From: Chthoniobacteraceae bacterium
GTDB lineage: Bacteria; Verrucomicrobiota; Verrucomicrobiia; Chthoniobacterales; Chthoniobacteraceae
Assembly: GCA_037190965.1 (NCBI GenBank)
Contig: JBBCKI010000034.1
Span: forward strand, 68,519 to 132,518
Direction: 5' to 3'
DNA length: 64,000 nt
Position numbers: made by a program. Within the stretch, counting starts at the first letter, position 1, and the number at the start of each line of letters is the position of its first letter. Positions 42,001 through 48,000 of this stretch are shown here, one piece after another.

Positions 42001-45000
42001 CTGGCTTTGCGAGTTAAACGAGGCAATGACCGCGCCGGTGCTGTCATATCCCAGCTTAAATAAGCTGGTTCCCCCGGTGGAGCTCGAAATAGACCACAAG
42101 GTGCCTCCTTGTGCTCCACTGATATTGGCAAACCCTTCCAGATAAACCCATCCCTCCATGGTGAATTGGTTGTTAGTGCTCAGGTTGATGCCGCTTACGT
42201 TGGTAACGGTTCCGGAGGTGGCCGCATTATACTTTGTGCTGGCGCTGTAGTCCAAACCGGACAATGCGGGATGGGAGAGAGAGAATGGATACTTGGAACT
42301 TTTGGTAACATCCCGGTTGAAATTCACCGTTCGTCCATTCCCGCTTTGATCTGCGTAGGATTTGCTCGATAGCTGTGTATCGAAGTTGTATTGGATTAAT
42401 GTGGCAGCTTGCAGTGAATTGGCGGCAGCGCAGAAGAGGGTTGCCGCGAGGGCGTTAAGCAGTCTTTTCATGGCTATTTGGAGATGTTTTGGAGGGGTTG
42501 GTTTTCTAGTCGGAGGAGAGGTGGTAACCTAAGTGTTGGAGGGTGTTGGGCGGCGTTAGGCGGTGCCCGGAGGAGGGCCGCCGGCGGATTCTCGCCAAAC
42601 GAAGTCCATGTCCATGGTTTCAACGGAAAGCAGCTCGCCCTTTTCGATGCTGGCGATCATCTTCTCCATGATCTGAGCGCCCAAAACGTCATCATGCCGC
42701 CGGATGCTTGCGATGGGGAGATCGTACAGAGGTGCAAATGGACTGTCATTGAAGCCAATGACGGCGACATCTTCGGGAATCCGCTTTCCCTTTTTGCGAA
42801 GGGCTAAGATCGCCGCCGCCGCGACTTCATCTGTACCGGCCAAAATGGCATCGATGGACTGATGCTCGGGATGAGAAAGAATGGCTTCCACCCCCTCCCT
42901 GGTAGGCTCAGGCGCATCCAAAATCGCCAAGCTGGCATCGCTCGACTCGGAATTCAGCGCCCGCCGAATTCCGTCGATCTTCTCTTTGCTTCCCGTTAAA
43001 TGCCCAAGAACGGCAAAGTTCTTTCTTCCGCAACGAAGCAAATGCCTGACTGCCTGAAGCAGCGCATTCTCCATGGATTGTATAATACCGGGGAAAGGCA
43101 TGTCCCACTTGGTGTTCGTGGCGACAAACACATTGGGTAGGGTGCGAAGCTCTGAAATGATTTCGTCGTAGTAATTCAGAGGTGAGGGGCGGTACAATTG
43201 GATGATCAACCCATCCACTCGCCAACGCTTCAGTTGCTTGAGTTGGGACGCGATCAGATTGGCGTCGCTCATCGAGTCATAGACCAGTGCGTTATATCCG
43301 TGCTGCATCGCCTGCGTGCTGAAGCAGCGGAACAATTGGGTGGCGTAGGGGCCGCCGAACGACCAGAGCACACCGATGCAGTATGAGCGTTTCATACGCA
43401 GGCCGCTGGCAAACGGATTCGCGTGATAGCCAAGTTCCTTGGCTGCCAGTTGAACCCGTTCAATCGAGGCCGGTGCGATACGCAGCCTTGGGCCATGTCC
43501 ATTCAAGACCGAACTGGCTGTGGTCATGCTGACTCCGGCAAGTTTGGCGACAGCCTTGAGTCTGACGGGGGATGGGGAGTTTTCTTTCATCTCACGCTGA
43601 ATCGATTTAGCGTGCTGATGCTGAATCGATTCTGCAACGGAGTCAAGGCTTTTCCTGGGGGAGAAAATGTCGCTGAGTTGGCTCCGCGAATTTCGAGCCA
43701 GTGACGGTGTTAACCTGGAATGGAATTGCGGTTCTCCGGAAACTGTGCGAAGCCCAAGCGCACGGGGAACGATTGCCAGAGGCAGAATCGCGAGGTCACC
43801 CCAAGGCGGAAGTTGGGTGTCCAGTCGCCCCTTTCAGACCTTATCGCGGGCGCATTCGATTGACCGGAATAATTCGTCGGTCCTGCGGAGACTCTCGGGG
43901 AAGGGGCAGGTTCTGCTCTTCTAGTGTCCTGAGTCAGAAAATCTTGTCCAATTTTCCTCGTTCCCAAACCCTGAGACTGTGTGAAAACACACCTACGTCA
44001 TTGAAAGCCTGAGAGAGGGAGATCAGGATGAAGGGCGATGAGATTCATTGCCGGAGTAGACCGCTCGCAACGCCAGCTTCTGCCGGAGAGCCTTGAGGAT
44101 TACGTGACCAAGGGGGCTCCGGTAAGGTTTCTCGATGGATTCGTGGAAAGTCTGGACCTTGCAGAGCTTGGCTTTGTTCGCTCCAAACCGGCAACTACGG
44201 GAAGACCCTCATATTCTCCGGCAGATTTGTTGAAGCTCTACCTCTGGGGATACCTCAACAGAGTTTGCTCAAGCCGCAAGCTGGAGCGGGAATGCCAGCG
44301 TAATCTGGAAGTGATCTGGTTGATGCGCAAACTGGCACCGGATTTCAAAACGATTGCCGATTTTCGCCGGGATAACGCCAAAGCCTTCAAAGGAGTCTTT
44401 CGCACCTTCAACCTCCTGTGCCGGGAGATGGATCTTTTCGGGGCGGAACTGGTTGCCATTGATGGCACCAAGCTCAAGGCCGTAAACTCCCAAAAGCGCA
44501 ACCACAGCCGCCAGGAGCTAGAGGCCATGCTGTTGCGGATCGACAAACGGCTCGAAGAGTTTCTCTCTCAGCTCGCAGCAACTGACGAAGCCGAAGAAGG
44601 GAGCGCCCCCCTCACAGTGGCTATCGAAGATATTCAGAGCAAGCTCGAGCAACTGCGCGAGCGCCGCCAGCGCGCTCAGAAACAGCTCCAAAGCCTTGAA
44701 GAAAGCGGCTCAAAGGAATACTCGCAGACAGATCCCGACAGCCGCAGGATGAAAAAAGTGGGGATTGGCTATAACGCCCAGATCGCCGTCGATTCAAAGC
44801 ACCACCTCATTGTAGAGCAGAACGTTGTTCAAGAAGCCAACGATCTTAACCAACTCGCGCCAATGAGCGCCGCAGCCAAGGAGGCGCTTGGGGGCGAAGC
44901 ACTCAAAGTCGTAGCCGATATGGGTTATTACGATCACGAGCAAATTGCCAGGTGCGAGCAAGACGGGATCGAAGTTTATGTCCCACGCCCCAAGAAAGGG

Positions 45001-48000
45001 AGCTCGGAAGCCAATGGGCGCTTTGGAAAGAAGGATTTTGCGTATACGCCCGACACAAACTCCTATCGCTGCCCACAAGGAGCAACTCTTTTGGCTGCGA
45101 CCCGATTTAATAAACGGGGCCAAATACACCAGCGCTACGAGAATCCCGCAGCCTGTACAAAGTGTCCGCTCAAGGAGAAATGCACGACGGGGCCGCATCG
45201 GACCATTACCCGGTGGCACTTGGAGAGCCTCCTGGACACGATGCACCAACGGGTCGCCGCGAATCCCCAAATCATCCGCCAGCGCAAAGAGTTGCCTGAG
45301 CACGTCTTCGGCACAACGATGTTTTGGAACAACCAACGAGCTTTATTCATGCGTGGACTCGAAAAGGTACGCGGAGAGTTTTCGCTTACGTCGCTGGCTT
45401 ACAACATGAAGCGGGTGCTGACCATCCTTGGGGTGGAGAAGCTCCTCAAGCACTTCGCGATGAAAATTGGGGAAATAGCCACAGGAAGCGCCTCATGCTC
45501 CGCCCATCGCTTCGCCTCGACATTCTTAAACCCCTTGATCGCATTTTTCTACACCGTGGACCGAAACGGCGTGAAGTTCCACTGTTTGAACCCTCATTGA
45601 CCTTCGATGCCCTCGGTGCTTTCAGTGCTCGCCGGGGGTGTTTTCACACAGTCTCCCTGTTTGGGAGCGTCCATGTTTTCGAAACTCCAGTTTCGCAACC
45701 CTATCTGTTCCGGCACCCTGCACGCGATGACAAGGCTTTCGAATCAGAGATTCGGGGACAATGGCATTACCAATCTGGAGATTGGTAACGAGAGAATCGC
45801 GCTAAAACATCATTCGCGCGGTAGCGCGCCTGCTTTCCGGTCCCCGGTTTCCTCTTTCTTTTCTTCTCTGAAAGACTGGATGATGAACAACGCCGCCGCG
45901 ATAAAAATGCACGAATCGGCCACATTGAAGGCGGGCCATGGGTTGGCGAAGGGGACGTGGAGATCGAAGAGAAGAAAATCGACCACGTAGCCGTGGGCGA
46001 TCCGGTCGGTCAGATTGCCGAGAATCCCTGAGAGCAGGAGCGCGAAGCCGACCCGGCTCAGCGTGTCCGGGAACATGCCGCGCCGTGCCAGCACCGCCAG
46101 AACCACAAGCGCCACCACCGAAAGCCCCATGAAGAAGGAGTTCGAGTCGCTCATGATGCTGAAAGCGGCTCCGGTATTGTGCCATCGGCCCAGGTCGAAG
46201 AACCCCGGGATGACGGGACGAGCCTCCTCCAACTGGAAGTTACGCAGGACCGCCAGCTTGGTCACCTGATCAAGCACATACAGCGGCAGGGTGATTGCCG
46301 CCAAAAGACGGGGATAACTTGCGCGCAAAGCAGAGGTCATGGGGCTAAAAGTCTCGGCATTATACTACCGCCGCGCAGCGATCACACAACTCCGGGTGAT
46401 CCGGGTTCACGCCGACCGACAATTTATGCCGCCAGCAACGGGCGCACTTTTTGTCGGAGGTCGGAACAAGCGACGCGACCGTTTCGGATCCCGCAGCCAG
46501 GGTGAGCTTGCTGACGATGAAAAATTCCTCCAATTCGGCCTCGTTCCCTTGCAGCTTTTTCAACAACTCGGGTTCGGCGATGCTCAGGGTGACGGCTGCT
46601 TCCAGCGCGTTGCCGATGAGCTTCTGCTTCCTTGCCGGTTCGATCGCCTGGGCGATGATCGCACGGAGCGAGAGCAGCGTCTCGAAATGCGCCTCCAACG
46701 CCGCGTCGGCGAGCGCCTCGTCGCGTTCAGGGAAAGTCTCCAGGTGAACGGATCCCGTCCGTCCTGCGAATTCCCATGCTTCGTCGGCGGTATAGGCCAG
46801 CACCGGGGCGAGGAGCCGGATCAGGGCGTCCGCGACGGTGTGCATGACAGTTTGCGTCGCGCGGCGGCGAACCGAGTCGGTGCCGTCGCAATACATCCTG
46901 TCCTTGGTGATGTCGACGTAGAGCGCGCTGAGATCGACCGCGCAGAACTGGTTGAGCGTCTGGAAGACCTTGCGGAACTCGTAGGCGTCGTACGCCTCGC
47001 GGCAGGTGCCGATCACCCCCTGAAAGCGTGAGAGCACCCAGCGGTCGATCAGCGTCAATGACTCGCCGGAGACGGCATCGCGCGCCGGGTCGAACCCGCT
47101 CAGGTTGGCCAGCAGGATTCGCAACGTGTTGCGGAAGAGACGGTAGGCCTCGCCGAGCCGGGTGAAAGCCTCTTCGGAGAAGGGGACTTCATCGGTGAAC
47201 TGCACGCTGGAGACCCAGAGGCGCACGATGTCCGCACCGTATTTGCCGACGAAATGCTCGGCATCCATCGGCTTCTGATAGCTGCTCGACTTGGAGATCT
47301 TCTTGCCGTCCTTGTCGACTACGAACCCATGCGTGATGACGGTTTTGTAGGGAGCCTCGCCGTAAAGCGCGACGGAGGTCATCAGCGACGACTGGAACCA
47401 GCCGCGATGCTGGTCGGTCGCCTCCAGATACACGTCGGCGGGGAAGCGGAGTTCCGGGTGCTTTTTGGAAACCGCCGTGTGCGAGACGCCGGAGTCGATC
47501 CAGACGTCGAGGGTGTCGTTGCGCCGGGTGGTCCCTTCGGGGAGTCCAACCGCCTGCGCCCACCATGCGTCGTCTTTCTCGAACCAGAGGTTCGTGCCGT
47601 GGGCTTCGACGAGATCGGCGACCTTGTGGGCGGCGCTTGCGTCGAGGATCGGTGTCCCCCCGGCACTGTAGAAGACCGGGAGCGGCACGCCCCAGGAACG
47701 CTGGCGCGAGATGCACCAGTCGGGCCGGGCCTCCACGGTGCCGTAGATCCGGTTGCGGCCCCAATGAGGGAGCCATTTTACCTTGTCGATCTCGGAAAGC
47801 GCCGACTCGCGGATCTTCCCGATGTTGATGAAAAACTGCTCCACCGCGCGGAAGACCACGGGCGTCTTGGAGCGCCAGCAGTGGGGGTAGGAGTGGGTGT
47901 AATCCTGTCGGCCGAGCAGCGCGCCGTTCTCCTGAAGGTGAGCGACCACGTCGGCGTTGGCGTCGAAGACATACTTGCCGGTCCAGACCGGAACGCCGAC

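Follow-up and report, generated by a model that had tools for sequence, protein, structure and literature searches.

We have found that all 10 insertion events of an IS1182-family insertion sequence (IS) and of a 150-bp MITE in this Chthoniobacteraceae genome split one hairpin type of a RAYT-linked repeat at its centre, as the preliminary description of this DNA had proposed. Judged from sequence comparisons, the IS probably belongs to a lineage that has specialised on one RAYT-linked palindromic repeat family, whose arms would be read by a Tn5-like transposase dimer.

The element, its target and the insertion events

The features of the window (i.e., the whole stretch of 64,000 nucleotides that was analysed) are as follows.

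43957 to 43969, + strand: left arm of the targeted hairpin, at the A end of a 151-bp repeat (from the sequence; the site, once rejoined, folds as empty copies do)
43970 to 43972, + strand: CCT at the centre of the hairpin, duplicated in the target (first copy; contig C18 carries an unoccupied repeat that also has CCT here)
43973 to 45655, + strand: IS1182-family insertion sequence, 1,683 bp (run X1 has a contig with identical ends)
43973 to 43990, + strand: left terminal inverted repeat, 18 bp and perfect, with 16 bp common to the MITE
44038 to 45600, + strand: DDE transposase, 520 amino acids (NF033551, DUF772, DDE_Tnp_1_6)
45638 to 45655, - strand: right terminal inverted repeat
45656 to 45658, + strand: CCT again, the second copy of that duplication
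45659 to 45669, + strand: right arm of the targeted hairpin (from the sequence)
45680 to 45695, + strand: second A-end hairpin, with a centre of 4 nt (52 unoccupied copies)
45740 to 45792, - strand: B end of the repeat, made up of two hairpins, of which the outer has an ACCAATC arm and a 4-nt centre (53 unoccupied copies)

The IS, which is intergenic here, had been placed at 43974 to 45654 and is in fact one base wider on each side. Indeed, a repeated contig in run X1 (possibly the source sample) ends exactly at 43973 and 45655, and the read depth of the IS in that run (49.7, compared with 8.8-10.8 for its flanks) is consistent with 5-6 copies. Two joints in run X1 were considered as evidence of excision and rejected, as they derive from other repeat copies. 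The family assignment given earlier stands: the 520-aa ORF scores 390 bits (cut-off, 270) with NF033551, the IS1182 transposase model, and contains the Pfam domains DUF772 and DDE_Tnp_1_6. D142, D294, and E421, which are invariant columns across 104 aligned transposases, would form the catalytic DDE triad, and four cysteines (C345, C373, C376, and C382) are conserved. An alignment-based model predicts (pLDDT, 91.8) a fold whose top match is the Tn5 transposase (E = 4.7e-6), in keeping with the RNase H-like fold of the IS1182 family; a PDB sequence search returned nothing useful and no solved sequence relative. The 18-bp terminal repeats are also found in distant IS1182 relatives, and the 3-bp duplication in the window lies inside the range of 2-60 bp given for the family in PMC7335449.

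The targeted repeat occurs at 75 loci, 62 of them with both ends, which is close to the approximately 78 copies estimated previously. Like REP/REPIN elements, it forms dispersed inverted dimers (the unit folds with z = -4.9), and two inverted copies flank the RAYT gene on contig C5 that had been named as its own (109.7 bits with NF047646; cut-off, 80). In three genomes with orthologues of this RAYT (65-72% identity), the orthologues are flanked by the same hairpin and the remaining loci are not (0/19). The foot of the repeat is CTCG rather than the GTAG of canonical REPs. A further family, put earlier at about 55 copies beside a third RAYT, does lie next to a RAYT-like gene on contig C9; its best 16-mer has 40 matches, and the gene scores 78.2 bits, just below the RAYT cut-off of 80.

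A terminal-repeat search at up to 3 mismatches gave 43 matches, of which 21 without the arm were set aside as unrelated and 22 were assigned to the IS and the MITE. Every end with flanking DNA (20/20) adjoins a CCCAAA[C/T] arm, in agreement with the earlier count. The 22 ends amount to 10 events, i.e., six copies of the IS (12 ends) and four of the MITE (10 ends, because two are contig overlaps). For the IS, both flanks lie on a single contig in the window copy alone; the other five copies were paired across contig ends from their arm type and the letters of the centre. The events in all 10 cases correspond to the type 1 association of a REP-targeting IS in PMC1525189. The preliminary statement that every centre has 3 nt holds for nine events; the remaining one, in the very repeat that flanks the RAYT gene, has 4 nt in its centre as well as in its duplication, the latter a length that depends on pairing contig C5 with contig C31. 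Shorter terminal repeats flanked by a 5-nt duplication were also considered and rejected, as the terminal base differs at the right end of the MITE. In all copies, the element joins the repeat two bases beyond CCCAA plus the spacer.

All nine split repeats that keep both ends are interrupted at the A end, and neither the second A-end hairpin (52 copies in the genome) nor the B end (53 copies) contains an insertion. The preference for A-type over B-type hairpins (Fisher test, p = 4e-5 to 1.4e-3) is confounded with spacer length, given that the centre of almost every B-type hairpin has 4 nt.

Two alternatives bear on these junctions. The first is that the hairpin halves are extended terminal repeats that move with the element, and arms and ends together do make up a 35-nt inverted repeat in the window. 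However, the arms vary between copies of elements that are 100% identical, the repeated contig of run X1 excludes them, ending at 43973 and 45655, and intact empty hairpins with a single centre exist; in addition, either arm is found at either element end, with orientations within the hairpin of 3:3 for the IS and 2:2 for the MITE. This view is refuted by the occurrence of both orientations and of empty sites, and we give it next to no credence. It is very improbable, too, that insertion is loose and harmless intergenic repeats are selected, or that the RAYT adds repeats at IS ends afterwards. The repeat is indeed numerous and the window copy intergenic, but each insertion is placed with single-base precision and duplicates the centre, the far side of every split repeat resumes as a normal repeat, and the other RAYT-linked repeats (C50, C9, and C43, with 135, 40, and 10 matches) carry 0/20 of the flanked ends.

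The MITE had been described as a ~160-bp nonautonomous derivative of the IS, a description that does not hold. It is 150 bp long, noncoding, and present in four copies (99-100% identical), with terminal repeats and duplications of 3 or 4 nt as is usual for MITEs, and it folds with z = -7.5. Its termini are identical to those of the IS at 16/16 and 15/16 positions. Past the terminal repeat, nothing in its interior matches the IS in the genome or the fetched loci; origin by deletion from this IS was rejected as the interior is not homologous, and no parent of that interior was found in the same material. Given the terminal identity, the shared target, and the finding of only one such transposase, we infer that the MITE is mobilised in trans by the transposase of this IS, through its near-identical terminal repeats.

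Target choice in other genomes

Whether the same target is chosen in other genomes had been posed beforehand, and two lines of evidence show that it is. First, in a search of 150 family genomes with the terminal repeat only, the arm adjoins 59/59 ends in 11 genomes, at offsets of 3 (n = 45), 4 (n = 8), or 5 (n = 6), counts that are non-independent where kin genomes or multiple copies of a single element contribute. Second, among the matches listed, all 10 transposases (43-100% identical) of one clade (support, 0.965; SH-aLRT, 96 for nine rows in a subset tree) adjoin this hairpin family, and 16/16 readable flanks are its arms. The residues W70, D299, and K320 are specific to this clade. One of the 10, L256, was found by a junction-pattern search and used in the query alignment; minus L256 and the window copy the count is 8/8, with L349 and L350 near-identical. 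The junction-pattern searches are biased towards the target and served only to show breadth. The relatives listed in the first protein scan reach only 53% identity, and sampling of relatives is incomplete.

Duplications match in whole relatives at 3 nt (L081, L397, L177, and L191) or 5 nt (L264 and L418), and where both flanks agree, the duplication length (3, 4, or 5 nt) tracks the spacer. The flanks fail to match in about half of the whole relatives (3/6 in the clade, and also L101, L416, L426, and L436), probably owing to recombination or collapsed assembly; among outgroup elements, 32/94 have no duplication. In a related clade, with 84 members among the matches listed, AAA[C/T] occurs in the same register. 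The automatic labelling of L317, L346, and L364 as REP-type was rejected by eye. The hypothesis that targeting of this repeat family arose only once was also rejected (AU p = 0.0028), a value that is only indicative for a group named after the tree had been built.

How the hairpin may be recognised

In the mechanism that we propose, a Tn5-like transposase dimer would capture the palindrome symmetrically, one subunit reading each arm and joining an element end just 3' of it. The cut would fall at a fixed distance from each arm, and repair of the stagger would duplicate the 3-5-nt spacer. The repeat would then offer the IS a renewable intergenic landing pad.

We attribute target recognition to the protein because the noncoding ends hold no copy of the arm. 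An element-encoded guide RNA that picks the target, as in IS110/IS1111, might be suspected from a 10-nt match to the arm inside the MITE interior, but it seems exceedingly unlikely: the IS has only 65 and 55 noncoding bases, the arm word is absent from 6/7 whole clade elements (the single match is inside an ORF), and the predicted fold is that of a Tn5-like DDE enzyme.

A possible but rather doubtful alternative is that structure comes first, the transposase capturing an extruded cruciform and joining at the 5' edge of each loop, with a minor role for arm sequence (pathway c in Fig. 13 of PMC5678879). The length of the duplication does track that of the loop, from 3 to 5 nt. Target variants (CCCAAAC, CCCAAGT, CCCAATC, and GACGAAAC) differ by compensatory stem changes, a single element in genome G483 occupies both AAAC and AAGT arms, and IS1272 targets hairpins without sequence consensus (PMC4923244). 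On the other side, only one type is used among the 573 perfect 8-bp hairpins of the genome (107 belong to the targeted family), and the second A-end hairpin and the B end are left unused. Moreover, a C-A mismatch as the innermost stem pair in G483 leaves the cut at offset 3, and in G020 all nine ends (9/9) are on the GACG variant, whereas the GTTCCCAA hairpins (13 forward matches) are empty. The query used here recovered no transposase from G483 or G027, and the ends there are therefore not tied to an enzyme. As between a bent duplex and an extruded cruciform, we lean slightly towards arm-sequence reading with a flexible centre.

More speculatively, an IS1182 subgroup with shared ends may have radiated across host hairpin repeats, a scenario we regard as conceivable though on the unlikely side. 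The protein-only DDE transposases of its clades would have been retuned to different REP families or integron attC sites, and the stagger (3-5 nt) adjusted to the spacer of the extruded hairpin. If so, they would constitute a natural set of transposases that read structure, can be retargeted, and parasitise RAYT and integron systems, including the repeat that flanks the RAYT gene itself.

Comparison with known systems

Targeting of hairpin centres is already known from other transposon families, and the element is not a new kind; its targeting is closely precedented by ISPsy8 and by palindrome-targeting IS1182 members. Loop-duplicating IS1182 members are reportedly mentioned in a 2015 review by Siguier. 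The clade described here bears on how DDE transposases choose palindromes and on the broad spread of IS1182 duplication lengths: its transposases come paired with their targets, whose arms vary and whose spacers measure 3, 4, or 5 nt, a range able to separate the duplex from the cruciform reading. Our findings also indicate that RAYT-maintained repeats sustain other mobile elements.

Within the IS1182 family, IS1272 and TnSha1 share the choice of palindromic targets (PMC5678879, PMC4923244). IS1272, however, deletes the stem-loop, makes no duplication, and follows no sequence consensus according to the same sources, whereas the present element leaves the hairpin in place with its centre duplicated and uses only one repeat family. 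Loop-only duplication is sketched in Fig. 13c of PMC5678879, where Siguier et al. are cited for palindrome-targeting IS1182 members without detailed data in that passage. Among the papers listed by our literature search, none concerns an IS1182 element that targets REPs.

The MITE resembles MITEPye1, which accompanies ISPye18 in Paracoccus, in being gene-less, with IS1182-type terminal repeats and a long stem-loop fold; these two and ISPse1 of Paracoccus (1,653 bp, 16-bp repeats) differ in their 4-bp duplications, and no REP target is reported in the relevant sections of PMC11578231 and PMC3281130. As in REP/REPIN-RAYT systems, TIRtrons, and subclass 2.6 (PMC8266576, PMC3733652, 10.1101/279083), a single RAYT lies between inverted copies, here with ~62 dispersed inverted dimers. 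The targeted repeat differs from REP/REPIN-RAYT systems, as far as these accounts describe them, in its two hairpins per end and the lack of a GTAG foot, and seems closer to 'atypical' or TIR-type repeats.

Other REP-targeting ISs, namely IS1397, ISKpn1, IS621, ISPa11, ISPpu9/10, and ISRm19/22 (PMC1525189) and an IS481 of P. fluorescens SBW25 (10.1101/2024.06.02.596822), likewise have all copies at one host REP position. They belong to the IS3, IS110, IS4, IS256, IS5, or IS481 families, and an IS1182 member is not named in the parts of these sources that list them. The closest likeness is to ISPsy8 (IS3 family) of Pseudomonas syringae DC3000, every copy of which interrupts a REP at the axis of the hairpin and is flanked by a 3-bp duplication (PMC1525189). 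As here, insertion is at a single point on the axis, and the outer arms of that REP, ATTCCCA and TGGGAATGCC, follow the pattern of the present repeat, a resemblance in arm pattern rather than an established homology. The transposase of ISPsy8, in contrast, is an unrelated two-ORF IS3 enzyme, the duplication is reported as fixed at 3 bp, and the account of it in PMC1525189, in the sections concerned, describes no MITE or cross-genome clade. IS3 and IS1182 lineages thus appear to have settled independently of each other on one repeat type.

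The IS1182 element and its target repeat

The IS1182 element in the window splits a repeat that lies directly downstream of genes we take, from the appearance of their sequences, to be ileS-like and lspA-like, and upstream of what is presumably a LacI-type regulator gene.

43973-45655, IS1182 element of 1,683 bp, flanked by CCT on either side; its terminal repeats are perfect over 18 bp
45810-49080 and 42556-43590, both (-), genes around the split repeat

Beside the regulator, at 40005-42471 (-), are genes whose products look pilin-like at the N-terminus and PEP-CTERM-like at the C-terminus. 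The 520-aa ORF of the element scored 390 bits against NF033551 (cut-off, 270), which identifies it as an IS1182 transposase. D142, D294, and E421 are invariant in a 104-sequence alignment, and the confident model built from that alignment (pLDDT 91.8) has Tn5 transposase as its best structural match (E = 4.7e-6). Seven residues past E421, at residue 428 (window 45319-45321), the window transposase and those of loci L336 and L337 carry Met, the residue being Lys in at least 90% of relatives.

The target repeat is an inverted dimer of 151 bp whose ends, A and B, each carry two hairpins; we counted 75 loci in the genome (62 spanning both ends), close to the ~78 copies of the preliminary description. 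Searching for the terminal repeat with up to 3 mismatches gave 43 matches, 22 of which belong to the IS or to a short gene-less companion (MITE). Twelve of these ends match the IS at 100% identity and make up six copies (orientation 3:3), and 10 belong to a 150-bp MITE, giving four copies (2:2). Thus, the 22 ends represent 10 events, not 20. All 20 ends with flanking DNA adjoin a CCCAAA[C/T] hairpin arm, in line with the earlier description. The duplicated centre is 3 nt in nine events, as previously given for every copy, and 4 nt in one MITE event. In addition, a contig from run X1, possibly the source sample, has ends identical to those of the IS and ~5-6x the depth of its flanks.

Our data do not uphold derivation of the MITE from the IS, since neither the IS nor the fetched loci contain a match to the MITE interior. 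The window genome's MITE contains a 10-nt match to the hairpin arm, and the MITEs at L165, L237, L456, and L436 have palindromic repeat sequence within their own ends. A clade element has, however, given rise to a true internal-deletion derivative (325 bp, L416:1501-1825), which retains the first transposase codons and is located in the same hairpin family.

Empty outer hairpins number 123 with variants, including 38 of CCCAAAC, 53 of ACCAATC, and 15 of CCCAATC type. All 10 events lie in CCCAAAC-type hairpins (Fisher p 4e-5 to 1.4e-3, varying with the counting rule), and the A end is occupied in 9/9 hit repeats retaining both ends, a preference confounded with spacer length because almost all B-type centres are 4 nt long. 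On its own, the short motif is insufficient for targeting, since the 49 AAAC-N3-GTTT sites outside the repeat in this genome are all unused.

The repeat and its RAYT gene

As reported before, the targeted repeat flanks its own RAYT gene, with copies upstream and downstream of the gene on contig C5. The 4-nt event is a MITE (L250:2213-2370, at the C5 end) that splits the upstream copy 55 bp from the start codon and may thereby influence RAYT expression or the RAYT substrate; the downstream copy has the same 4 nt as its centre. Three RAYT orthologues in other genomes (65-72% identity) are flanked by the same hairpin, which was found beside none of the 19 other RAYT-like loci of those genomes. 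Because it has no GTAG foot, the repeat resembles the atypical or TIR-type repeats in the accessible text of PMC3733652 and 10.1101/279083.

The window genome has five further RAYT-like matches, on C50, C43, C9, and C7 (L442-L446). The best 16-mers of the neighbouring repeats gave 135 (C50), 10 (C43), and 40 (C9) matches, and no element end was found in the repeats adjoining these three.

Targeting across related elements

A protein search for relatives (alignment of at least 300 aa) retained at least 236 loci and 204 distinct proteins, and removal of seven with <35% identity left a tree of 197. The window transposase groups with nine others, 43-64% identical to it, in a 10-member clade supported at 0.965 (SH-aLRT 96 for the nine rows in a 46-row subset). 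In each of the 16 clade flanks that could be read, the arm belongs to the targeted hairpin family (CCCAAAC, CCCAATC, CCCAAGC, CCCAAGT, or GACGAAAC); without the window copy and L256, which came from a target-biased search, this holds for 8/8 clade members. A search with the terminal repeat only found matches in at least 24 of 150 family genomes; among the matches listed (all but 12), which gave 90 distinct ends flanked by 14 or more bases, the arm adjoins 59/59 ends in 11 genomes and 0/31 in the other 13, in an end set that overlaps the tree set and includes non-independent kin genomes. In these 11 genomes, target choice, earlier flagged as unchecked outside the window genome, follows the same rule. 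With a looser pattern, the empty hairpin is present in 19/60 relatives.

Junction-pattern scans, which are target-biased and indicate breadth only, listed comparable junctions in records bearing the labels Calditrichia, Bacteroidota, Cloacimonadota, and Ignavibacteria. L192, L319, and L388 lie outside the clade, yet adjoin similar hairpins; a single origin of targeting was rejected (AU p 0.0028, for a group named only after the tree was seen). A repeat variant with a GTGACGAAAC arm and four compensatory stem changes has its own targeting elements (L420, L426, L436, L339).

Among the matches listed, the 59 arm-adjoining ends lie at offsets of 3 (45 ends), 4 (8), or 5 nt (6). The duplication equals the spacer in whole elements with matching flanks, at 3 nt (L081, L397, L177, L191) or 5 nt (L264, L418). 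In the related genome G483, the offset is 3 in all 26 ends read, even where the innermost pair is a C-A mismatch, and ~13 empty 4-nt hairpins are among the matches listed; in G020, 9/9 ends use a GACG variant, though GTTCCCAA hairpins are present. Set against the agreement of duplication and spacer are the non-matching flanks of 3/6 whole clade elements and of L101, L416, L426, and L436; a duplication is also absent from 32/94 outgroup elements, which may reflect recombination or collapsed assembly.

A related 84-member clade has AAA[C/T] in the same register, adjoining a 4-nt duplication, and 43/94 outgroup targets have at least 7/10 symmetric pairs, a count without a shuffle control. From these sequence patterns, symmetric targets look ancestral within this IS1182 subgroup. 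A neighbouring IS1182 clade and its 109-bp MITEs (L352, L259, L371, L039, L078, L391, L117, L118, L124), which carry the same terminal repeat, insert into attC-like sites, 6-7 nt past the TAAC box. The duplication is 4 nt in most cases, and six of the reconstructed targets terminate in a GTT box; our literature search on IS1182 and attC found no such report. Sister elements (L501, L502, L459, L396, L398, L381, L299, L383) occupy the 4-nt loops in other palindromes, several of them GTAG-tagged, and three whole MITEs carry a 4-nt duplication.

Proposed mechanism and known systems

The elements occupy an exact position, in either orientation and with the centre duplicated, and this is conserved across the clade. 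We postulate that a transposase dimer would read one arm per subunit and join each element end just 3' of an arm, tolerating spacers of 3-5 nt, and that the form captured would be either a bent duplex or a cruciform. Selection of the target by a guide RNA is unlikely, since the non-coding ends of the IS are only 65 and 55 bases and carry no arm sequence. The MITE would probably be mobilised in trans by the IS transposase, and the repeat could serve as a harmless, renewable landing site.

The targeting is real and sharper than first read, and its components are known: REP-targeting ISs and a palindrome-targeting family. Like the preliminary description, our literature search, with subscription reviews and ISfinder outside its scope, found no report of an IS1182 element in REPs. 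In the accessible text of PMC1525189, ISPsy8 (IS3 family) sits at the hairpin axis of the P. syringae REP and duplicates 3 bp, and the outer arms in the supplement rows match the pattern of our repeat. The accessible parts of PMC5678879 and PMC4923244 describe IS1272 as targeting hairpins with a deletion and credit palindrome-targeting IS1182 members to Siguier et al.; those of PMC5678879 also sketch loop-only duplication, and those of PMC11578231 describe an IS1182-type MITE. What the present elements add to these systems is the fidelity of a whole clade to a single RAYT-linked repeat family, a duplication whose length (3-5 nt) tracks the spacer, and the fixation of neighbouring clades on other hairpins.
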